Numbered from the stretch's first letter, positions 7,222 through 62,359 are shown. The stretch: DNA of 64,000 bases from Armatimonadota bacterium (GCA_031400935.1 JANNQV010000017.1:62001-126000); one strand, 5' to 3'. A program made the numbers and translations. The notes: generated by a model from the sequence alone, not told the origin.

Positions 7222-9027
7222 TTACCTCTGCCATGACCAAACCTTAACTGCAACCTCAGCTAATCGCTCCGAACGCTTTCGAACCGCACCTAAGTTCCAC
7301 AGTCCATCGTGATCTTTCAGATCTCTCGCCAACGCCGTAATCTCCGAATAAGAATTCACCTTTGTAACAAAAATACTTTGACCCGCAAAACTATTCGCTG
7401 GTAGGCTCACGAGGCAGAGATTTCCAATACTGTTGATCAATGTCTCAAATTTCGGATGCTCGACTTCAGTGCCCAAATAAACCGCCCAAGAACTGTCGAG
7501 GGTTTGCGGAATGACATGTTCGATAGTCCGAAGGCTGCTGTAGTCCGGGTACTGGTCGTGTTTTTGCATTCCGCGATCTATTTCGGACAGCACCATTCTC
7601 CCGAAAGCAAGGTCGCGAGTACGATAAAGCGCTTTGTTGACGAAGGCTTCGACAAATTCCTGGTCCGAAACCCAAACTTCGTTCTTTTGAAAATGTTGGT
7701 GTAACGCCTTGACCGGATCGGCTTCGTGAGCAACCTGTACAAAAAGCCTTGGGAACATCGTGTCATACACAGTTGTTGGCTGCTCGGTCATTTTGCGCCG
7801 GACCAGCATAGTGAGCGTTTGGTCCAGAAGTCGCACAGCTAAGTCTTTACCGATGGCTTCTTGATTCAAATTCCGGATGAGGTCGAGCAAAAACGGCGTC
7901 GAACTCTCCATTCTCGTGTTGGCAATGTGCTCCAATATTCTGCGAACATCTTTATCAGGGTAAATGTGCTCCTCTGGCTCAACAATACAGCCGAATAGTT
8001 TCGCGCTGTCGTGGATCTCCTGAAGCTTCTGCCGGGCGACTACAGCATCGAGATCCTTATACCGATTTTTGAAGTGAACGTAGACCTTTCGGCTGGTGCC
8101 CACCATTTTACGTTCGCCAATTGAGAACAAGTTTCGGAGATATTCCTCGAATGTACTTCGATGCCTGAATTCTCGCAACGCCGCAAGCCAAAGATGGTTG
8201 TGAAGCTCCTCAAAATCGGAGACTTCCGTAAGCGGCCTGAAAAGATAGCTGCAAATCAGCTCGCTTGCCGATAGCGGCATGCCCTTATCGTTCAAGCTTT
8301 CGAAGATAGCTTGTGGGTCGTCTTTTCCGTCCTCCAATGGAATCCAAACGATTTTGAGGCAATCGAAAATCGCCGTTGCCAACTGCCACAATTTCGACAC
8401 ATCCTGAAAACCCAGCCGCATTTTCCTTTCGGCATACGCCACAAATGCATCCACTTGATTGGCCCCGGGCTGATAAAGCTCGATGTCGGTGTGATAGTGT
8501 GGAGACCGAGGATTATGCTCTGTTCCGAATATCGCCCGGTAGGTCGGCAGGCGATCGCCCTTTATGGAAAATAGCTTCAATTTTTGATAATCGTCGTCCG
8601 ACGAAGTTTCATTGATTAGCCACTTTCCGATTTCAGAACGGTACTTCGAGGCGTCGCTAGATTTGGTTTGCAAGGCTTCGAGACGGCGATAAATGATTCC
8701 CAAAAGCAAGTAAACCGTGGTTATGCGCTGTTGCCCGTCAATAACAAGAAATCGTTTGATGCCGTCATTGCTTCCCTTCTTTTCCAGCACGACAATTGGG
8801 CCGAAGAAGTGCTCAATTTCACTGGCATGGTCGCCTGCTTCGAGATCGGGAATGATGTGGTCGTTGATGTCTTCGAGAAGCTGGTCCCACTGCCGCCTTT
8901 CCCATGCGTAGCCTCTTTGAAAGAACGGGATTTCAAACTGAATGTCATCGGTGAATACAGAGCGGAATGTCCGGTTGCCGATTGTTTCTGTGCTTTGTTG
9001 CCTTTCAGTTTCAATTGTCATTTCCAT
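7222..9027 (-). CDS. DUF262-DUF1524 (GmrSD-like) modification-dependent restriction nuclease
   Basis: IPFFQRGYAW, VIDGQQRITT, IFESLN (DUF262); IEHVIPQ..IGNLCLV..AN (HNH-type DUF1524); start moved to ATG 9027. Confidence 0.9.
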   Translation of the reverse strand: MEMTIETERQQSTETIGNRTFRSVFTDDIQFEIPFFQRGYAWERRQWDQLLEDINDHIIPDLEAGDHASEIEHFFGPIVVLEKKGSNDGIKRFLVIDGQQRITTVYLLLGIIYRRLEALQTKSSDASKYRSEIGKWLINETSSDDDYQKLKLFSIKGDRLPTYRAIFGTEHNPRSPHYHTDIELYQPGANQVDAFVAYAERKMRLGFQDVSKLWQLATAIFDCLKIVWIPLEDGKDDPQAIFESLNDKGMPLSASELICSYLFRPLTEVSDFEELHNHLWLAALREFRHRSTFEEYLRNLFSIGERKMVGTSRKVYVHFKNRYKDLDAVVARQKLQEIHDSAKLFGCIVEPEEHIYPDKDVRRILEHIANTRMESSTPFLLDLIRNLNQEAIGKDLAVRLLDQTLTMLVRRKMTEQPTTVYDTMFPRLFVQVAHEADPVKALHQHFQKNEVWVSDQEFVEAFVNKALYRTRDLAFGRMVLSEIDRGMQKHDQYPDYSSLRTIEHVIPQTLDSSWAVYLGTEVEHPKFETLINSIGNLCLVSLPANSFAGQSIFVTKVNSYSEITALARDLKDHDGLWNLGAVRKRSERLAEVAVKVWSWQR

Positions 9028-9091
9028 TCTTTTTACACCCTGCCCAACTCCTCCATCATCTTCATACCTCAAATAAGGGAGGAGCTCCCGC

Positions 9092-11662
9092 TCACTTCGC
9101 CCCACTCCTCAATATCGCATTGAAAACCAGCTTAAAAGTCTGAGTTGGCTGGCCACGGAAGAGCACTTCGGGCCCGAAAAGCACAACCCTTCCCTTCCCC
9201 AGCGGAACATCGGCAATTGCGATTGTGTCTTTCAAAATCTCTTGCCCCCATGCCCAGCCAGAACGAAGCGGCTTGGCGGTATCGAATACTGCAACAGTGC
9301 TATCGGGAGGAGGAGTTGGGGTCGTCCACCGAAACGCAGGGCTGTTATCGAACATGGAGTCCACATAATCATTCAGACCCCGCGTAAGGCCGGAAGATAG
9401 TAATAACTGTATTCGAAGCACCGAGCCTGGAACATAGAATTTGGTGTTCGGAAGTCGGCGTGCCGTGCCATCTGGCCCGAGTTCAGTCAAGGCACTTTCT
9501 AAAGGCAATCCAAATGGCCTCAAAAGGTTCTGTGCCGAATCTCCGATCGCGATGATGTGTCCACCATTTTCTGCAAAAGTCTTCAATTCTGCAATCGCCT
9601 TCGCGTTCATGCTGCCCATTCGGGCTCGCCATTCGGCTGGAATGGTCTGATCGTTGCTTTGAGGTTCCCCGCCACCGCCAGGTCCTCCACCACCTTCACG
9701 AACTGCGCCTGGAATCGCGCCAGAAGGAAGCACAATTACATCAAATTTGTCCTTCAAATTGCCCTTCTCAAAGTCGGGCGGGAAGACAAGCTGAAAATCA
9801 AATCCAAATTGTTCGAAGACCCAGCGAGTCCAGCCGGAGGTCATCGAACCGCCGTAGCGATCCCAAAGTGCAATTCGAGGCTTGCCAACTTGCCTCGGAG
9901 TTGTTGGACCTGTGTGCAAGAATCCCCGTCCGGATGCACCATCGCCACGCAAAAATACTTCAGTTCCTGCGTGAAGGGCAGCATTTACTATCTTATAGCT
10001 GTCGAGATCGTGGAAACTTTGCCACTCAGTGAGATTTGCGAACGTAGTCACCCTTTGCCCGCCGATTACAGCCTTCGTTTCCAAACTCACTGGATCAAGA
10101 ACCCTCTCAAACTCGATCCCCATTTGAAACGCCAACGTGTACCCGGCATTGTCATAAGGCGGAATCGGTGGGCCGCCGGGAAACTGAAAGTCGTTCGGAT
10201 GGTCCTGAAACTCGAACATGTCCAATATTTGCGGCCGATAAGCCTGATTGCAGGGAATCACATATGACCCAGCCGGGCAGTTCTTGCCATTGACAGTTGC
10301 CGCCTGAGTGAGCTGCTCGACCTCGACGCCGCAATCCATCAGCCGGTCTACAAACCACCGCATCGAACCTGGATCGCGTTGATCTGCCGGCAAAACGTAC
10401 ATCCGGGCATCGCGCAGTTCTGGCTTCTTGATCGCATCGGCTCCCAACGCCATAACTCGGCTCGAATATCGGGTCCAAGTGTCTTTGTTGCCTCGATCAA
10501 TGGCGTTCTTTGCGGCTTGATAGGTGTCCAGCAGCAGCCTTTCTCGATACCGTGAAGCAAAATCCAAAATCGCATAGTTCGCCTCAACCTCATAGCGCAG
10601 AGAATCGCGCAGATGCCATTCGCCGGGCTCGACAGGCTTCGGAATATCGGTCGTCGGCACCTGGCGATTGTTCAAGAATGGAATCATCGTTGGGTTTGGC
10701 GAACCAAAAGTCTCCGTCAGAATCCCGATCATGTTGTGATAGTAGGTCGTCGTTCTCAGGCCGCCGTTCCACCAGGTCGAATAGTTCGCTGCGTTCCGCA
10801 TCACGGTTCCGCCAAGCCCTTGCACGATCAGCCGTGTGTGCATGTGCATCGCGACCGTATCCGTGGCGACCTGAATGATCGGATCCACATGATAGCTGAA
10901 CGGATTCCGGAATGGCGGGATGAACATAACCGTCCCCGCAGGAGCAGATTGATGGTGGTTGTACAGAATCTGCGGCGACCATTCTTTGTAGAGAATCCGG
11001 TTCATATTCCGCGTTTCGCTCATGTTGTTGGCGTAAAAATCGCGGTTGTTGTCGTGCCCGATGTACTTTTGATACAGCCTCGGAACGCCAGCCAAAGACC
11101 GAGTTTTCGGGTCGGTTTTGCGCATGTACCAATTCGAAACCAGGTCCATTCCATCGGGGTTGGCATGGACGACCAAGATGATCACGTCCTTCAAAATGCG
11201 CTTGTTCTCAGGGTCATTTCGGCTCACCAGCTGATAAGTGGTTTCTAAAAGCTGCTGCGCGCCGAGCACTTCTGTCGCATGCAGCCCGCCATCGATCCAC
11301 ACTACGGTCTTCGCGGTTTTGGCGAGCTTTTCAGCATCCAAATTGTCTTTGAAATCTCGCGCCATAGCGAACTTGCGGCTAGTGGTTCGGTGCTTTTGAA
11401 GGCTCTTCAGGTTCGCCGGATCGCTGATGATCGCCATGTACTGCTCCCTGCCCTCTTCCGTCTTGCCGATGGACTGCAGCATCATGCGGCTGGATTCCTT
11501 GTCGAGCTTTTGCCAATAGGCGGTGAGCTGTTCGTAGTTCGCAAGCCAATAGTCTTCGCAAACCTCATGCCCGAAGAACTGTTTGGGAGTTGTGACTTGG
11601 GCTTGGGCTGAAACGACAAATGCAGCGAGAGCGAGGAGGGGCAATGTACGGCGGAGAACCAT
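9092..11662 (-). CDS. M14 family zinc carboxypeptidase with C-terminal domain
   Basis: Signal peptide from ATG 11662; GLHATE (HxxE), ANPDG, DNNRDF, NHHQ. Confidence 0.88.
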   Translation of the reverse strand: MVLRRTLPLLALAAFVVSAQAQVTTPKQFFGHEVCEDYWLANYEQLTAYWQKLDKESSRMMLQSIGKTEEGREQYMAIISDPANLKSLQKHRTTSRKFAMARDFKDNLDAEKLAKTAKTVVWIDGGLHATEVLGAQQLLETTYQLVSRNDPENKRILKDVIILVVHANPDGMDLVSNWYMRKTDPKTRSLAGVPRLYQKYIGHDNNRDFYANNMSETRNMNRILYKEWSPQILYNHHQSAPAGTVMFIPPFRNPFSYHVDPIIQVATDTVAMHMHTRLIVQGLGGTVMRNAANYSTWWNGGLRTTTYYHNMIGILTETFGSPNPTMIPFLNNRQVPTTDIPKPVEPGEWHLRDSLRYEVEANYAILDFASRYRERLLLDTYQAAKNAIDRGNKDTWTRYSSRVMALGADAIKKPELRDARMYVLPADQRDPGSMRWFVDRLMDCGVEVEQLTQAATVNGKNCPAGSYVIPCNQAYRPQILDMFEFQDHPNDFQFPGGPPIPPYDNAGYTLAFQMGIEFERVLDPVSLETKAVIGGQRVTTFANLTEWQSFHDLDSYKIVNAALHAGTEVFLRGDGASGRGFLHTGPTTPRQVGKPRIALWDRYGGSMTSGWTRWVFEQFGFDFQLVFPPDFEKGNLKDKFDVIVLPSGAIPGAVREGGGGPGGGGEPQSNDQTIPAEWRARMGSMNAKAIAELKTFAENGGHIIAIGDSAQNLLRPFGLPLESALTELGPDGTARRLPNTKFYVPGSVLRIQLLLSSGLTRGLNDYVDSMFDNSPAFRWTTPTPPPDSTVAVFDTAKPLRSGWAWGQEILKDTIAIADVPLGKGRVVLFGPEVLFRGQPTQTFKLVFNAILRSGAK

Positions 11663-11763
11663 AGGAGTAAGTTCGGCGAGGGAGGGCTGGATTCCTGCCG
11701 GTTGTGTGGACACATTGTGCGTACTGATCCTGGTGTAGAGCGAGAGTAGGTTCAATATGTTGA

Positions 11764-13275
11764 CTAACGCGGCACAAATGACTTCCACGGCATGAATGCC
11801 TCACCGTAAAATGCTAGGTAGCGAAGTTTTGCGGCGACCAGGTCTCGAAACGACACATCACCGGAAAGGCAAGCTTCGAAGTCATCCACGTCCATAAGCA
11901 ACACATTTTTCGACGGATTTCGCTTTAGTCCATCTTCAACGTGCTTTGACCAGCCGGACATTGAAATTAAGAGACCAAACACCGTGCTGCCACCACGCTG
12001 GGCTTTCATAGACAGGACGTCGCAAGTTGCGAGGTCTTGTTCCTCTTTATGCCATTTGCATTCGGCAATGAATAGGTGCGAATCCAATTGAAACGCTCCG
12101 TCAATTTGCTCAGAGCGGCCGTGCCTATCAAAACTCTTTTCCGCATAAATAGCTTCGATCCTCAATAATTCGTTTAGGATCTTTTCAAGTTTGATACCTC
12201 GCGGAATCGGTTTCAATTTTTTTGCATCATCGTACATTCTCACTAACTTCGACCTTGCATCGGATCTGAGCGAACCTAGTGATGGGTCCGCCTTTACCGC
12301 AATGTCGATAAGACGCCGAAAGCAAGGTGAATCTGGACCAACAATTGAACGTATATATGCCAAGTGGCCAAGCGCAACGAGCCGAAATTGACCTAGATGA
12401 GAAGGATAACGATGTTTCTTATCATATTTAGCGTGAAACACTTGCTCAGCATTCTTCTCGCCATATTTGTCCCAAGCATGAAGCATTCCCCTAACTTTTG
12501 CTTCATATTCTCTTTTCACATTGACTTTGCTGTTAACTACTAGGCCTGTAACTACCTGTCGTTGATACCACGTCCGAAGGCGAGTCTTGCTTTCGTTTAC
12601 CTTAAACCCTTCCTTTAAGATTATGCCAACCAACAATTCACTTAGCTCTATTTCTGGTTGAAGAGTTGCGATAAACTCGTGACCAAATGGGCGGTTGCTT
12701 GAAAACGTAATGTCATCGGCATATCGAGAATAGCGACAACCTCTCCTACTAGCAAGGTTCTGCAATAATTTGTCAAGCCTGAAGCAAATTGCATTGGAAA
12801 TAATTGGCGAAGTTGGAGCTCCTTGTGGCAAAACACCAAGATTGCAACAAATCCGAGCCATGACGCGTGCTGCATCTGTATCTAAATTAAAGGGTTGACT
12901 CTGCAATAGACCAATCACCCGTTGCAAAGTGATGGTTGGGAAAAAGTTTGCTAAGTCAAGATTCAGCACGAAGCGCCTTCCCACATGCCGAACAGCGTTT
13001 TTATGTATGCCTCCACCTTTAATGAACCCGCATGTAGAATTCCTTGGTTCATATCGATTCTCAAGGAAAACTAACAATCGCCTTTGAAGCTGCTTTAGCG
13101 TCTTATCGGGGGCAAAGATCTCGCGGGATTTACCTTTCGCCTTAATGTTAAAACTAACGTACTTGCTCGCCGGCGAACGCGCCGCATGGTACCGAAGGTT
13201 CTTTTCCGAAGTGCTCAGTTCAGTAGCAACGTCAGCTACAGTTAGTTGAGAAATTGGGGCAACTTTGGAGAACAT
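11764..13275 (-). CDS. Retron reverse transcriptase fused to a C-terminal Mrr-like PD-(D/E)xK restriction endonuclease
   Basis: Retron region X NAVRH, LDLANFF, LPQGAPTSP, YADD, region Y VTGLVV; C-terminal RGIKLE..EQIDG..ECKW..GLLISMSGW. Confidence 0.92.
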   Translation of the reverse strand: MFSKVAPISQLTVADVATELSTSEKNLRYHAARSPASKYVSFNIKAKGKSREIFAPDKTLKQLQRRLLVFLENRYEPRNSTCGFIKGGGIHKNAVRHVGRRFVLNLDLANFFPTITLQRVIGLLQSQPFNLDTDAARVMARICCNLGVLPQGAPTSPIISNAICFRLDKLLQNLASRRGCRYSRYADDITFSSNRPFGHEFIATLQPEIELSELLVGIILKEGFKVNESKTRLRTWYQRQVVTGLVVNSKVNVKREYEAKVRGMLHAWDKYGEKNAEQVFHAKYDKKHRYPSHLGQFRLVALGHLAYIRSIVGPDSPCFRRLIDIAVKADPSLGSLRSDARSKLVRMYDDAKKLKPIPRGIKLEKILNELLRIEAIYAEKSFDRHGRSEQIDGAFQLDSHLFIAECKWHKEEQDLATCDVLSMKAQRGGSTVFGLLISMSGWSKHVEDGLKRNPSKNVLLMDVDDFEACLSGDVSFRDLVAAKLRYLAFYGEAFMPWKSFVPR

Positions 13276-13285
13276 ATCGTATAGT

Positions 13286-13391
13286 GGAGCCGTTCATCTT
13301 TGCGCAAGCCGATGCATAGCGCACAGCAATCTGCCGGATGTACCCTTGTTCAATATCGACGCAGTATCTGCGTCCTCAAGCAACGGCTCCG
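13286..13391 (-). ncRNA. Retron msr-msd ncRNA
   Basis: Perfect 9-bp inverted repeat ggagccgtt (13286-13294)/aacggctcc (13382-13390); G opposite G just inside the stem; 7-bp hairpin 13358-13374; ends 10 nt before the RT ATG. Confidence 0.8.
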
Positions 13392-13396
13392 GTCCG

Positions 13397-13440
13397 ATCT
13401 TACCCATTTCTCGATCAGACGTCAGCTCACAAAAAAAATT
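13397..13440 (-). promoter_or_regulatory. sigma70-type promoter of the retron
   Basis: -35 CTGACG (13425-13420), 17-nt spacer, -10 TAAGAT (13402-13397), upstream A/T tract; predicted start at the 5' arm of the ncRNA. Confidence 0.65.
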
Positions 13441-13474
13441 GGCAATAAATTAAGAGCTTGCTTTTTCTTACCTT

Positions 13475-14041
13475 CTATACCAGGACGAATCGCTTTGGTT
13501 GTTCGAGCACACCAAGGTCTTGAATCGTATCTCGAATTGACATTTCGAAATAGCGAACATAACTGGGAAAGTTGCCCCGAATCAAGGTCTCCATCGTTCG
13601 AGCGTCACCTTCCGATCTGAAGCAAAGAATCGCCCCTAAACGCCACGGCCCGTTTCCTTTAGTTGCAACAGCACCACGCCCCAAATTGTGCTGCCTTATA
13701 CGTTTCGACACATCGTTCGAATACCCAACATACACGAGTCCTTCACTATTCACAATTACGTATACACAGAAAAGTCGCCCAATTACTGAATCTCCGTTGA
13801 TCTCTTTTCGAACCGTCTGCACTCCGAAATACTCGCCGTCAGGACTTTTGCTCGGCGTGGCCTTGATGTTCGGATCGGTATTGAAAAATGCAAGCGCATT
13901 CTTCTGTAATCTCGCCAAAATTGCAGATTGGCTCCGCCCAAAAGTGCACGAAAGCTCGCAAACGGAAGCTCCACGCCGATACATTTGAACTAGGTTTCTC
14001 TCTTCCCCTGAGGACCATGGCACATAAGCTCGGTCATTCAT
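13475..14041 (-). CDS. GIY-YIG nuclease with N-terminal HTH-like domain
   Basis: VYVI..LVYVGYS..KRIRQHN..TK..PW; N-terminal PWSSGEE..FGRS..AILARL. Confidence 0.85.
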   Translation of the reverse strand: MNDRAYVPWSSGEERNLVQMYRRGASVCELSCTFGRSQSAILARLQKNALAFFNTDPNIKATPSKSPDGEYFGVQTVRKEINGDSVIGRLFCVYVIVNSEGLVYVGYSNDVSKRIRQHNLGRGAVATKGNGPWRLGAILCFRSEGDARTMETLIRGNFPSYVRYFEMSIRDTIQDLGVLEQPKRFVLV

Positions 14042-14055
14042 TGTCTTGCCTGAAA

Positions 14056-15267
14056 CTAATGAGCCTTCCCCGCGTTTGCAGCTTTATAAGCATCTGCAAA
14101 GATTTTCACTTGCGCCATCACACCGTCTCGAATCTCGGCATACTTACTAAGAGATGCTCCAAACAATCCATACGTGCCGGTATCCCACACTTTTGCGGAC
14201 TCATATCTTCCTGGGAAGATAAAAACTCCGCGCTGAACGGCAACTTCTATCTTGTAAAAGGTCGTGCCAAGGCTGTTCTCCATTGCACCTACCCGGACAT
14301 ACAAGAGAGTACTTAGGAGGTCATTTCTTCTTAAGACCTCAATCTCCGTAGTGCCCTTGTCATTTCGAAATGCCTCGGTCTGCTTCGTGCTTTCAATAGA
14401 CGTCATTCCTGACCGTTCTAGGGCTTCCTTAACCCACCCTTCAACAGATGACTCTGAGAAACTCACTTTGATTGAACTTGGCAAGTCCTCGACAAGAACG
14501 CGTATTGGACCTAGTTTTTCAAGCACGCTGATCTCTACGGGAAGTGTGCCAATGGTCGGATTCGCAAGTATAGATGTGGTATTTGTGTTGGGTCTGTTTT
14601 CTGTTGATTTAGCGGAGCCACCGGATCCCAAAATGCTGATCGGCACTCCGTTAACACCCTTAAGCTCTTTCGAACTCACTGCAAAGTTGAGTCCTTGGCT
14701 CCCTTCTACACCTGATGTGACCATACCAATCACATCCCCCATCAGGTTCAAAACTGGGCTACCGCTACTTCCATGATCTACTGCCGCAGAGAGCTGTAAG
14801 ATGTTTCCGGACTTGATTGTGCGCTTTGCAGAAACCATGCCTTCTGTAAGCGTTCCTTCCAAACCCAGCGGACTTCCAATTACTAAAATCGTTTCGCCAA
14901 CTTTGGAACTAGCATAATCACCCAATTTGGGGCCCAACTCACGCTGTTGCCAGCCTTGATAGGCTTCGGTCAGCAGGATAGCAATGTCATTAGCGATGTC
15001 CACGTCCTTTACCCAAAGTGCTCGGACTTCCTTGCCGTCAGAGAACTTCACAGAAACAGACTTGGAACCTTCGATTACATGATAGGCTGTGTAGAGATCA
15101 CCTTTTGAGTCGAAGAATCCTGTCCCTCGGGAGCTTTCGGTGACAATCTGAACTACTGACTTACTATACTTCTCATAAATGTCCTTCGCAGTTAAGGTCT
15201 TTGTTGCTTGTTGAAATGGAACCAAGTTCGTTGAAAACAAGCATATTATGGGGACAAGACAAGTCAT
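14056..15267 (-). CDS. Trypsin-like (S1C) serine protease, exported
   Basis: GTGFF, TAYHV, DIAIL, GSSGSP; start placed at ATG 15267 after a TATACT box. Confidence 0.88.
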   Translation of the reverse strand: MTCLVPIICLFSTNLVPFQQATKTLTAKDIYEKYSKSVVQIVTESSRGTGFFDSKGDLYTAYHVIEGSKSVSVKFSDGKEVRALWVKDVDIANDIAILLTEAYQGWQQRELGPKLGDYASSKVGETILVIGSPLGLEGTLTEGMVSAKRTIKSGNILQLSAAVDHGSSGSPVLNLMGDVIGMVTSGVEGSQGLNFAVSSKELKGVNGVPISILGSGGSAKSTENRPNTNTTSILANPTIGTLPVEISVLEKLGPIRVLVEDLPSSIKVSFSESSVEGWVKEALERSGMTSIESTKQTEAFRNDKGTTEIEVLRRNDLLSTLLYVRVGAMENSLGTTFYKIEVAVQRGVFIFPGRYESAKVWDTGTYGLFGASLSKYAEIRDGVMAQVKIFADAYKAANAGKAH

Positions 15268-15328
15268 GCCCAAGTATAGCGATAATTGCGTGAAAGTTCA
15301 ATTGAAACAACTTGGAATGGTCGTCATT

Positions 15329-16159
15329 CTATGAATTTCTGATATGGGTTCCTTTTGTGCCTTCCTGAATCTTGAACGTCCCAATCCTCTCTTTCCCCGG
15401 GCTGAACACCCTCAACTCAAACTGTTTGGCGGGCAGCGATTCAATCGGAATCTCCACCCAATACCACCGGCTGTGAAAATCGCCAAACAGCCCTTCAAAC
15501 CCCTTCGGATCGGGAGCTAGAAATTCGTGAGCCATTGCCTCGGCGATTGGGGAGCGCTGATGCCATGGAAACGGTTCGACATCGCTCTTTTCTCGCCCTC
15601 GAAGTTCTGCGAGAAGATAGGCATGTGGGGCAACTCCCTTAACTTCCCAATCCGAACTGATCTTGCGCTTGAAGAACGGATTTGCTTTGACCAAATAGCC
15701 CTGAGATTCGCGGCGCGGAAGCTCCTTGCCATCCATTGTGATAAGAAATCGAATCTGATCAATTGCGAAAAGTTCTGGCTTTTCGCCATCTTCATCCAGT
15801 AATTTTCGCTTGGGATATGCGGAAAGGCGCACGATTAGGGTGATCTTTCCATCCAGAATCTGGCTGGTTGCGTTCCAGCGTTCTGCCCTTTGCTCTGCTG
15901 ACCATTTCTCTTTAGCGGCTAAGTATCCGTTCCATCGTGCCATCAACGCTGGGGAGAGCCAGATCGCCTCTTCTGTTGCGTGATGCCGGGTTCCATCGAA
16001 CCAGTTTCCGATCACCTGCCGATCTTCCATCCAGCATCTTTCGACGCCTTTGCCTTTGACAAAAACTTCGACCCCGCGCTTGAACTGAGCAGGATCAGGC
16101 GTATCGCCAAATCGCAAAGAATTGAGCACCAAGAAGCTCAGAGGGATTGTGAACACCAT
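15329..16159 (-). CDS. Hypothetical exported protein
   Basis: 276-aa ORF with hydrophobic N-terminus, divergent from pyrC. Confidence 0.6.
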   Translation of the reverse strand: MVFTIPLSFLVLNSLRFGDTPDPAQFKRGVEVFVKGKGVERCWMEDRQVIGNWFDGTRHHATEEAIWLSPALMARWNGYLAAKEKWSAEQRAERWNATSQILDGKITLIVRLSAYPKRKLLDEDGEKPELFAIDQIRFLITMDGKELPRRESQGYLVKANPFFKRKISSDWEVKGVAPHAYLLAELRGREKSDVEPFPWHQRSPIAEAMAHEFLAPDPKGFEGLFGDFHSRWYWVEIPIESLPAKQFELRVFSPGKERIGTFKIQEGTKGTHIRNS

Positions 16160-16192: not shown

Positions 16193-17521
16193 ATGCAGTT
16201 CGATTTGGTGCTTGCGGGCGGGGAAATTGTCGCGGAAGGGCGCGTCGAGGTTGCCGACATTGGCATCATCGAAGGCTCGATTGCAGCAATCGGTGACCTG
16301 CGAAATGCGCCAACTTCAGAGTTAGTTGATCTTAGTGGGCTCACTGTTTTGCCGGGGCTGATAGATACGCAGGTTCATTTTCGCGAACCTGGAATGACGC
16401 ATAAGGAAGACATCGAGTCAGGAACTCGCGCTGCAATTGCAGGGGGCGTGACAACCGTTTTGGAGATGCCAAACACGATTCCGCCAACAACAACCGCTTC
16501 CGCTTTGCGGGATAAATTGGAACGGGCAACAAGTGGTGCATGGTGCAATATTGGCTTTTTTGTCGGGGCTGCTTTAGACAATTTGGAGCTGCTTTCTGAA
16601 CTCGAAAATCTTCCTGGAACGCCGGGAGTAAAGCTGTTCATGGGTAGTTCAACTGGCCCGCTACTGGTTGGCGATGACGAAGCCGTCAGAAAGGTATTGC
16701 AGAACGGACGAAAGCGGATGCCGGTTCATTCTGAGGATTCGTTTCGGCTAGAAGAACGCAAGAAATTGATTTCGACAAATCCTTCCGTTCACGAGCATCC
16801 CTATCTAAGAGATGCTGAGTGCGCCAGGCTTTGCACCGAGCGGTTGCTTCGTCTTTCATTGGAAACCGGGCGGCCTGTTCATGTGCTTCACGTTTCTACT
16901 CTGGAAGAGATTCCGCTCATTTCCGAGGCTCGGAAGATGGGGATTGACGTGACAACTGAAGTCACTCCACAGCATCTTTGGTTTTCTTCTCCCGAATGTT
17001 ATGATCAGCTTGGAACTCTGGCTCAAATGAACCCGCCGATACGCGGTATCGAGCATCGAGATGCACTTCGGCAAGCACTGAAGGACGGTTTCTTCACCGT
17101 GTTTGGAAGCGATCACGCCCCACATACATTGGAAGAAAAAGTGCTTCCCTACCCCCAAAGCCCAAGCGGAATGCCAGGGGTTCAGACGCTATTCTCGGCT
17201 CTCTGGACACTTGGGGTTCACAATGAGCTTTTTGATATACGCAAGTTCGTAGAGATGGCTTGCTCTCGTCCTGCTACGCTGTATGGAATTCAGAATAAAG
17301 GGGAGATTCGTGTCAGTTTTGATGCTGATTTTGCCATCGTGGATCTCAAATCAGAGTACGTCTTTGAACGTTCCATGGTGCAGTCGAAGTGCGGCTGGTC
17401 GCCATTTGAAGGGGCGCGGTTTGTGGGAAAAAATGTGCATACCCTTGTTGATGGAAAGTTTGTACTTCGAGACTGTCGAATCTCCGGATCGGCATGTGGT
17501 TCGATTCCGAAATTTGTTTGA
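16193..17521 (+). CDS. pyrC: Dihydroorotase (amidohydrolase family)
   Basis: PGLID.QVHFREPG, MPNT, HVLHVS, EVTPQHL, MNPP, SDHAPH. Confidence 0.85.
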   Translation: MQFDLVLAGGEIVAEGRVEVADIGIIEGSIAAIGDLRNAPTSELVDLSGLTVLPGLIDTQVHFREPGMTHKEDIESGTRAAIAGGVTTVLEMPNTIPPTTTASALRDKLERATSGAWCNIGFFVGAALDNLELLSELENLPGTPGVKLFMGSSTGPLLVGDDEAVRKVLQNGRKRMPVHSEDSFRLEERKKLISTNPSVHEHPYLRDAECARLCTERLLRLSLETGRPVHVLHVSTLEEIPLISEARKMGIDVTTEVTPQHLWFSSPECYDQLGTLAQMNPPIRGIEHRDALRQALKDGFFTVFGSDHAPHTLEEKVLPYPQSPSGMPGVQTLFSALWTLGVHNELFDIRKFVEMACSRPATLYGIQNKGEIRVSFDADFAIVDLKSEYVFERSMVQSKCGWSPFEGARFVGKNVHTLVDGKFVLRDCRISGSACGSIPKFV

Positions 17522-62321: not shown

Positions 62322-62359
62322 AAAGAAAACGGGCACCTCAATTGGTGCCCGTTTTCTTT
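62322..62359. terminator. Bidirectional intrinsic terminator
   Basis: aaagaaaacgggcacc-tcaatt-ggtgcccgttttcttt between convergent genes. Confidence 0.88.

Follow-up and report, generated by a model that had tools for sequence, protein, structure and literature searches.

A candidate compact msr-msd upstream of a clade-8 retron reverse transcriptase fused to a predicted PD-(D/E)xK nuclease in an Armatimonadota bacterium

The window, by which we mean the whole 64,000-nt stretch of DNA analysed here (Armatimonadota bacterium, GCA_031400935.1, JANNQV010000017.1:62001-126000), carries on its minus strand a 503-aa fusion gene (11764..13275) whose product joins a reverse transcriptase (RT; residues ~11-324) to a predicted C-terminal PD-(D/E)xK nuclease domain (residues ~340-503; 12258-11767). 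The frame is open for 509 codons only and contains no alternative upstream start for the RT ORF. Immediately upstream, on the same strand, fold and position mark out a candidate retron ncRNA (msr-msd) of 105 nt (13286..13390).

The fusion gene lies in a ~9-kb block (7222-16159) flanked by genes for an acyl-CoA dehydrogenase and a dihydroorotase; the block has the same GC content as its flanks (0.49) and looks like a defence island. It also holds a GmrSD gene (type IV restriction; identified by Pfam and PADLOC), an ORF of 276 aa without matches and three further ORFs on the minus strand: an ORF of 898 aa (9092-11788) in which residues 89-257 form part of an M14 carboxypeptidase domain, a 188-aa GIY-YIG ORF (13475-14041) and a 405-aa trypsin-like protease ORF (14056-15273). 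The M14-like ORF has no PADLOC or NCBIfam match, and its GTG start overlaps the RT stop by 25 nt. The trypsin-like ORF, two genes upstream of the RT, matches the protease part of the PADLOC RT-Protease_XI model (6.5e-18) and HtrA/DegP models. Named homologues of the dihydroorotase (16193-17521) belong to Fimbriimonadaceae (Armatimonadota; 58-61% identity). The runs containing the stretch are three DNA metagenome runs, two of them perhaps its source, and no RNA run, and their contigs show no differences. The protease, GIY-YIG and M14-like genes were ruled out as parts of the retron, as none recurs beside the 13 homologous loci described below; GmrSD and the unmatched 276-aa ORF do not recur there either. 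The neighbours of those loci are housekeeping or assorted defence genes that are unrelated among loci, and the RNA and the fusion protein therefore make up the whole unit.

To judge by its profile matches and motifs, the product of 11764-13275(-) is a clade-8 retron RT. Pfam identified RVT_1 in the ORF, and the best PADLOC model was RT-Protease_XI (5.9e-113), followed by RT-TIR_XII and RT-Toprim_I-C, with matches confined to the RT part (residues 11-335). The three motifs that characterize retron-type RTs are all present, namely NAxxH (NAVRH, residues 93-97), YADD (185-188) and VTG (242-244), and they are invariant or nearly so in 40 homologues. The best solved relatives of the RT are those of the retrons Ec67 (3.3e-48, residues 37-274) and Ec86. 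An earlier note, made from the DNA alone, had proposed an msr-msd at this site, and by domain, profile, motifs and solved relatives the gene directly downstream is a true retron-type RT. Its N-terminus is ~9 residues shorter than those of its homologues. The protein keeps every invariant column of the 40-sequence alignment, and so the gene looks functional and would need a template RNA.

The last ~165 residues of the protein form a separate domain (AF2 pLDDT 92.9), which is confidently modelled as a PD-(D/E)xK, Mrr-like nuclease fold. The top four Foldseek matches were MspJI chains (E 1.1e-4 to 6.5e-4), followed by AspBHI (1.6e-3), the small subunit of R.BspD6I (2.3e-3) and FokI (2.5e-3), with EndoMS and McrC at E values above 0.01. 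The modelled fold is accompanied by the D...(D/E)xK motif of PD-(D/E)xK enzymes, here D...E-x-K (D392, E405 and K407). Residues D392 and E405 do not vary across the 40 aligned sequences, nor do the same D and E across an 11-sequence alignment of the C-terminal domain; in many homologues the third residue is R, not K. Pfam Mrr_cat (PF04471) was found in 14 of the 40 homologues; the window protein gave no match to it, even with the E cutoff relaxed to 10.

Of the 119 homologues listed besides the protein itself, 106 (P0002-P0107) align over 81-99% of its length, with identities of 35-65%, and the nearest, P0002 (65% identity), was found in Logan only. Searching genome contigs with the full-length alignment returned mostly relatives of the RT domain only, with two of 79 loci full length (L003 and L007), and metagenomes were queried with the C-domain alignment for further RT-nuclease loci. 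The fusion is rare in this lineage: three overlapping genome sets, comprising 201 relatives, 228 members of the order and 401 members of the phylum, yielded one other full-length RT-nuclease copy (G025, 37% identity). The nuclease domain is also found apart from any RT, in proteins of ~302-343 aa whose N-terminal ~150 aa have no Pfam match and which are encoded on metagenome and viral contigs (L082, L094, L095, L100, L120, L122, L133, L161-L169 and others), as well as in a 504-aa fusion to SIR2_2 (L157:1981-3495). It appears to be an effector module common to several systems.

All elements that the earlier note had listed upstream of the RT are found on the minus strand where that note had placed them, including both hexamers, both arms, the hairpin and the ATG. 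The -35-like hexamer CTGACG (13420..13425) matches four of six consensus positions and is separated by 17 nt from the -10-like hexamer TAAGAT (13397..13402), which ends 6 nt 5' of the a1 arm, GGAGCCGTT (that is, GGAGCCGUU; 13382..13390). The first unpaired base past a1 is the candidate branching (priming) G, G13381, in the context UUGC. A perfect 7-bp hairpin, GACGCAG-AUA-CUGCGUC, occupies 13358..13374 just as had been reported, with its 5' end at 13374, and conforms to the pattern of one to three hairpins of ~7-10 bp expected of an msr. The presumed msd, or template, would extend over 46 nt (13295..13340), where the arms CATC (13340-13337) and GATG (13298-13295) enclose an inner stem formed by TGCGC (13323-13319) and GCGCA (13305-13301). 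It is followed by the a2 arm, AACGGCTCC (that is, AACGGCUCC; 13286..13294), which has G13295 just on its 5' side, is a perfect 9-bp complement of a1 and lies 10 nt before the RT ATG (13275).

Between the GIY-YIG ORF and the RT lies a gap of 199 nt, in which a1/a2 is the only strong inverted repeat; it supplies the terminal repeats that enclose a retron ncRNA next to its RT, and at 9 bp it falls within the published range of ~8-30 nt for each arm (Simon 2019, PMC6868368). The 105-nt RNA folds at -39.2 kcal/mol with the a1/a2 stem closed (z = -2.55; four of 200 shuffles equally good), and the msr part (13340-13381) has a z-score of -2.64. We estimated how often such a repeat would arise by chance by shuffling the 300 nt upstream of the gene and scoring perfect 9-bp repeats with a span of 60-250 nt and a 3' arm no more than 50 nt from the ATG. 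Mononucleotide shuffling produced a repeat so placed 575 times in 20000 and neighbour-preserving shuffling 92 times in 3000 (~3%), and a1/a2 by itself is thus moderately beyond chance expectation. Rfam returned no retron or other relevant family between 12800 and 14200 at E up to 10; its sole match there, shuA_thermo, was rejected as a chance match.

The earlier note had also credited the RNA with a promoter of its own. The two hexamers are indeed in place, but together they match eight of 12 consensus positions, below the 9/12 threshold of our scan, and were not called. The case for them comes instead from recurrence, because a promoter-like element occupies the same position at related loci: taking the best -35/-10-like pair within 70 nt upstream, the top pair ends 3-8 nt before the ncRNA at 14 of 26 family loci, as compared to 121 of 927 control positions (13%) drawn at random from the same loci (binomial P ~9e-7, a value that is overstated since the loci are related). 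This recurrence supports a transcription start at or just before a1, with window hexamers that are weak, and promoter rules in this host may differ from those of E. coli. Shine-Dalgarno-like sequences precede only ~3-4 of the 30 larger ORFs in the window, so having no ribosome-binding site before the RT is normal for this genome.

Evidence on the RNA at the level of the family comes from 13 distinct loci encoding homologues, a set formed after removing duplicates (L114, the same as L003, and L097/L098, the same as L093) and leaving out L110, where too little upstream DNA was available. At 12 of the 13, the top upstream inverted repeat is 12-18 bp long, covers 140-161 nt from end to end and stops 14-45 nt short of the start codon; the remaining locus, L103, has the same repeat with one mismatch. 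From a MAFFT alignment, RNAalifold derived a structure in which 17 of the 23 pairs show compensation. Scored on the MAFFT alignment without fitting, every one of the 13 a1/a2 pairs varies at both of its positions, with 98.8% of cells paired; the observed values were not reached in any of 500 shuffles, and in slid controls 38-47% of cells paired. Covariation of the arms in homologues, which the earlier note had named as a check, is thus established for the family, where a positionally equivalent repeat is present at 13 of 13 loci. The family RNA additionally has an inner helix (NNAUU/AAUNN) past an internal loop, a conserved msr hairpin (GUCGCUG-AUC-CAGCGAC) and a conserved stretch, GAU..AAGGUUAGCUUUA. 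An alternative inner pairing noticed by eye at L103 (AUUUUUG/CAAAAAU) was discarded, being without support in other family members.

From 13 homologue RNAs we built a covariance model (R1), which defines a family of 26 loci, and from 30 sequences a second model covering the msr only (R2). Members of the R1 family also lie upstream of a canonical type XI RT-Trypsin_2 gene (L016:3763-3929), of an RT-Schlafen/AlbA_2 fusion (L018:3703-3847), of RTs of 447-618 aa whose C-termini are unmatched and of RT-only genes of ~320-370 aa; further loci with an R1 RNA are L001, L005, L008-L011, L014, L023, L026, L028 and L043. In the text of Mestre et al., type XI is described with no recognisable ncRNA (Mestre 2020, PMC7736814).

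The window RNA is not a statistically recognizable member of this family. Across the window, R1 gave no full-length match and aligned at the locus with the msr hairpin only (5.9 bits, E = 8.1). When R1 was applied to 301 nt with filters off, the hairpin reached E = 0.038. The whole element scored 2.1 bits, and this on the wrong strand, since to the model the arms read as a palindrome. R2 found nothing at the locus with either default filters or filters off. No family-type RNA was detected elsewhere in the window (R1 and R2) or in the whole genome (R1). The best R1 match in the window (62323-62358(+), E = 0.4) was judged spurious, being an unrelated 13-bp hairpin; this hairpin, AAGAAAACGGGCA...UGCCCGUUUUCUU, is possibly a terminator. 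When the 105 nt were aligned locally to 32 family RNAs, the best score was 26, against the 3' end of the L125 msd, and 10 of 500 shuffles reached it.

The likeness that does exist is one of layout. The window RNA and the R1 family have in common their position and orientation relative to the RT, terminal a1/a2 repeats, a 7-bp msr hairpin with a 3-nt AU(C/A) loop, a GAU...AAGG(G/U)UA stretch after the hairpin and a -10-like element just upstream. Unlike the family, the window RNA escapes both models, lacks the inner NNAUU/AAUNN helix and internal loop, closes on a stem of 9 bp rather than 12-18 bp and has a shorter msd. Its hairpin differs from the family consensus by two flipped pairs and one loop base, a resemblance that is weak by score. 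By eye, GAUAUUGAACAAGGGUA resembles the post-hairpin stretch of the family and the window a1 resembles those of L103 and L087, and L170, from the host's own family, has GAUACUGC in common with the window msr hairpin. These by-eye resemblances are leads, not tests.

At 105 nt, the window RNA is the shortest in its own subfamily and a compact form of it, compared to 140-161 nt in RT-nuclease relatives and 130 nt at L170; it is 25-56 nt shorter than the RNAs of 14 of 14 RT-nuclease relatives examined. The difference amounts to ~13 nt fewer on the 5' side and ~11-13 nt fewer on the 3' side, corresponding to the inner helix and internal loop, and a further ~20 nt in the msd. Compact RNAs of 102-118 nt also occur at six other clade-8 loci (L024:3837-3954, L025:3724-3837, L029:1680-1793, L034:3817-3930, L054:3777-3892 and L070:1862-1963), five labelled alphaproteobacterial and one Caulobacterales/Hyphomonadaceae/Hyphomicrobium-type. 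These six have the conserved msr hairpin of the family, with a UGAUCC loop, no inner helix, a1/a2 stems of 14-16 bp where complete and a perfect 13-14-bp msd stem, and the L024 RNA folds with z = -7.92. Within the wider clade, the complete RNA nearly as short measures 114 nt, as the 102 nt of L070 count the arms only in part. A 48-nt msDNA is, moreover, already known from Ec48. The earlier description of the element as unusually small therefore holds against the 130-161 nt of its family, but not against clade 8 at large or against known msDNAs.

What sets the window RNA apart is an msd without a long stem. Typical msd stems are 10-50 bp (Simon 2019, PMC6868368), as compared to 4-5 bp here, and the weak, short stems described in the earlier note are borne out by folding: the predicted msDNA strand (13295-13345, +) reaches -7.4 kcal/mol (z = -0.53), a value equalled or bettered by 50 of 200 shuffles. 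A predicted msDNA of ~45-50 nt would contain no stable stem, folding no better than shuffles. The lack of a stable msd stem may be a sign of minimalism or, equally, of decay.

We consider it likely that 13286-13390 is a functional msr-msd closed by the arms given above. The element is probably a real retron ncRNA, with support that is positional and architectural. We favour this reading because its position and architecture are those of a retron RNA, because the adjoining RT-nuclease is intact and would need a template and because no family RNA was found elsewhere, and also because a1/a2 is the only strong repeat in the gap and has a promoter-like element suitably placed before it. A reduction of this extent could also be read as the trace of a decayed RNA, in which the repeat was left behind by a deletion within a ~150-nt family-type RNA and msDNA synthesis has been lost. 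The shortfall of 25-56 nt relative to all 14 relatives would fit such a history, as would the missing inner helix and missing stable msd stem of the window RNA, the failure of R1 and R2 on the element, the RT N-terminus shortened by ~9 residues and an a2 arm just 10 nt from the ATG. However, an intact RT-nuclease ORF with every invariant residue kept is not expected beside a dead template; the losses on the 5' and 3' sides are matched and leave a perfect stem, the msr hairpin is also perfect, and RNAs of 102-118 nt without the inner helix exist at other clade-8 loci. We regard this history as improbable.

We give still less credence, amounting to a very small probability, to the idea that the repeat is a product of chance or a regulatory structure in the 5'-UTR, controlling for example translation of the RT, with the template located elsewhere or absent. 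The ~3% chance expectation of the repeat leaves some room for it, R1 and R2 detect no statistical sequence homology to the family RNA, and an a2 arm so close to the start codon could occlude initiation. Yet neither the window nor the genome holds a family-type RNA elsewhere, homologues carry a covarying retron RNA at the equivalent position, and both the hairpin and the GAU..AAGGGUA stretch resemble those of the family by eye.

Provided that the RNA works, G13381 is the best-placed candidate for the branch point, and we lean towards it with modest confidence; the argument is one of geometry, GC context and alignment by eye. This residue adjoins a1, is the only G to lie directly against the end of the stem and is preceded by U and followed by C. 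In known retrons, the priming G lies in or just past the inner end of a1, usually as TAGC, with CAGA (Ec67), CAGC, GAGC and ACGC as exceptions (Simon 2019, PMC6868368), and a priming G after TTA has also been described (Khan et al., PMC10849725); a supplementary table of the latter study (Khan 2024, file 2) lists retrons without ncRNA sequences or RT-DNA coordinates. In the family, a1 ends in UGC, the G of which is the least variable position of the stem (a G-C pair at 12 of 13 loci, with covarying neighbours) and aligns by eye with G13381. Priming could also start at another G of an otherwise genuine a1/a2-closed retron RNA, such as G13375 (in UGAGG) or G13374, which would shift the limits of the msDNA. 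This we find unlikely, though less so than decay of the whole element. No G is fixed right after the outer or inner helix across the 26 family RNAs, in which the most conserved G's are the one within the a1-terminal UGC and the first base of the msr hairpin, and published contexts have A or C before the G (Simon 2019, PMC6868368), as is true of G13375, which follows an A. Against these alternatives, G13375 sits 6 nt from the stem, G13374 is paired within the msr hairpin, and it is G13381 that is followed by C, as in most known contexts.

Taking 13286-13390 as a functional msr-msd, we propose that this gene (minus strand) and the RT-nuclease gene form a self-contained single-protein retron. The two would probably be transcribed together from the weak promoter just upstream, and the RNA would close on its 9-bp a1/a2 stem. 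The RT would then recognise the msr hairpin and take as its primer the 2'-OH of G13381 or, less probably, of another G at the inner a1 end. Copying of the msd (~46 nt) would produce an msDNA of ~45-50 nt, which would remain associated with the protein. On the model of Retron-Eco2, the resulting nucleoprotein would silence the fused PD-(D/E)xK nuclease until a phage factor damages or removes the msDNA, upon which the freed nuclease would act and the infection would be aborted. Relative to the family, the window RNA would have lost the inner helix and internal loop and retained an msd that is shortened and poorly paired.

In its fullest form, this proposal describes a minimal retron that works, whose 105-nt ncRNA would be among the shortest in nature and whose ~45-nt, nearly unstructured msDNA would gate a fused PD-(D/E)xK DNase; in that form we regard the proposal as possible but doubtful. 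Were it true, the long msd stem and the inner helix of the family would be dispensable for priming and effector control, and RT-PD-(D/E)xK would constitute a distinct, unnamed clade-8 type beside RT-Toprim, RT-protease and RT-TIR. An active 105-nt RNA would set a natural lower bound on the size of a retron template and show which family elements are dispensable, and such a bound would be useful in engineering short RT-DNA donors; the use of the element as an editing chassis, raised in the earlier note, is speculation. An inactive RNA would instead illustrate how a template can decay while the adjacent RT gene stays intact. The pairing of an RT with a restriction-enzyme-like nuclease would give clade 8 a fourth effector module, and the RT-less and SIR2-fused forms of the nuclease domain fit a modular exchange of effectors among defence systems.

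Retrons are bacterial anti-phage elements, and those of clade 8 consist of a single protein, with msDNA synthesis and effector combined in one polypeptide; to our knowledge, only the Toprim form (Eco2) is understood mechanistically. The window system resembles this form, Retron-Eco2 (Ec67, type I-C), in being a single protein with a clade-8 RT, a C-terminal nuclease and an ncRNA directly upstream. It differs in that the effector of Eco2 is a Toprim domain and that of the window protein a predicted PD-(D/E)xK (Mrr-like) domain, and in having an RNA of 105 nt without a stable msd stem. The C-terminal Toprim that characterizes type I-C is missing, as the match to Ec67 is limited to the RT (residues 37-274) and Pfam finds no Toprim in the protein. 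In Eco2, priming takes place at G15, which adjoins a1, and the msDNA holds the nuclease caged; degradation of the msDNA by DenB, a phage nuclease, releases it (PMC12916289).

The 13 retron types set out by Mestre et al. place types I-C, XI and XII in RT clade 8 and, for type XI, pair the RT with a trypsin-like protease in one fusion protein (Mestre et al. 2020, PMC7736814). Type XI is a close type by RT, in that RT-Protease_XI is the best PADLOC model for the RT domain of the window protein and in that the R1 RNA family also precedes an RT-Trypsin_2 gene (L016) as well as protease-less RTs. The PADLOC match, however, stops at about residue 324-335, and a C-terminal trypsin-like protease is not part of the window protein. 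RNAs flanked by a1/a2 have been reported upstream of protease-less XI-like RTs, in lineages defined by WYL or DnaB_C neighbours (Toro 2026, PMC13712802); such neighbours are absent at the window locus and at its homologues, and the main text of that study makes no use of the terms nuclease, endonuclease or Mrr. Turning to the effector, the predicted fold and the D...E-x-K motif are common to the window C-terminal domain, MspJI/AspBHI and Mrr (PF04471), but, in contrast to Mrr and type IV enzymes, the window domain is fused to an RT and has no reader domain for DNA modification. An RT-PD-(D/E)xK fusion is not among the 13 types as presented in Mestre's text (PMC7736814), and we found no description of one in the literature, subscription papers and bioRxiv supplements aside. 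The modularity of the RT-nuclease retron fits what is known of clade 8.
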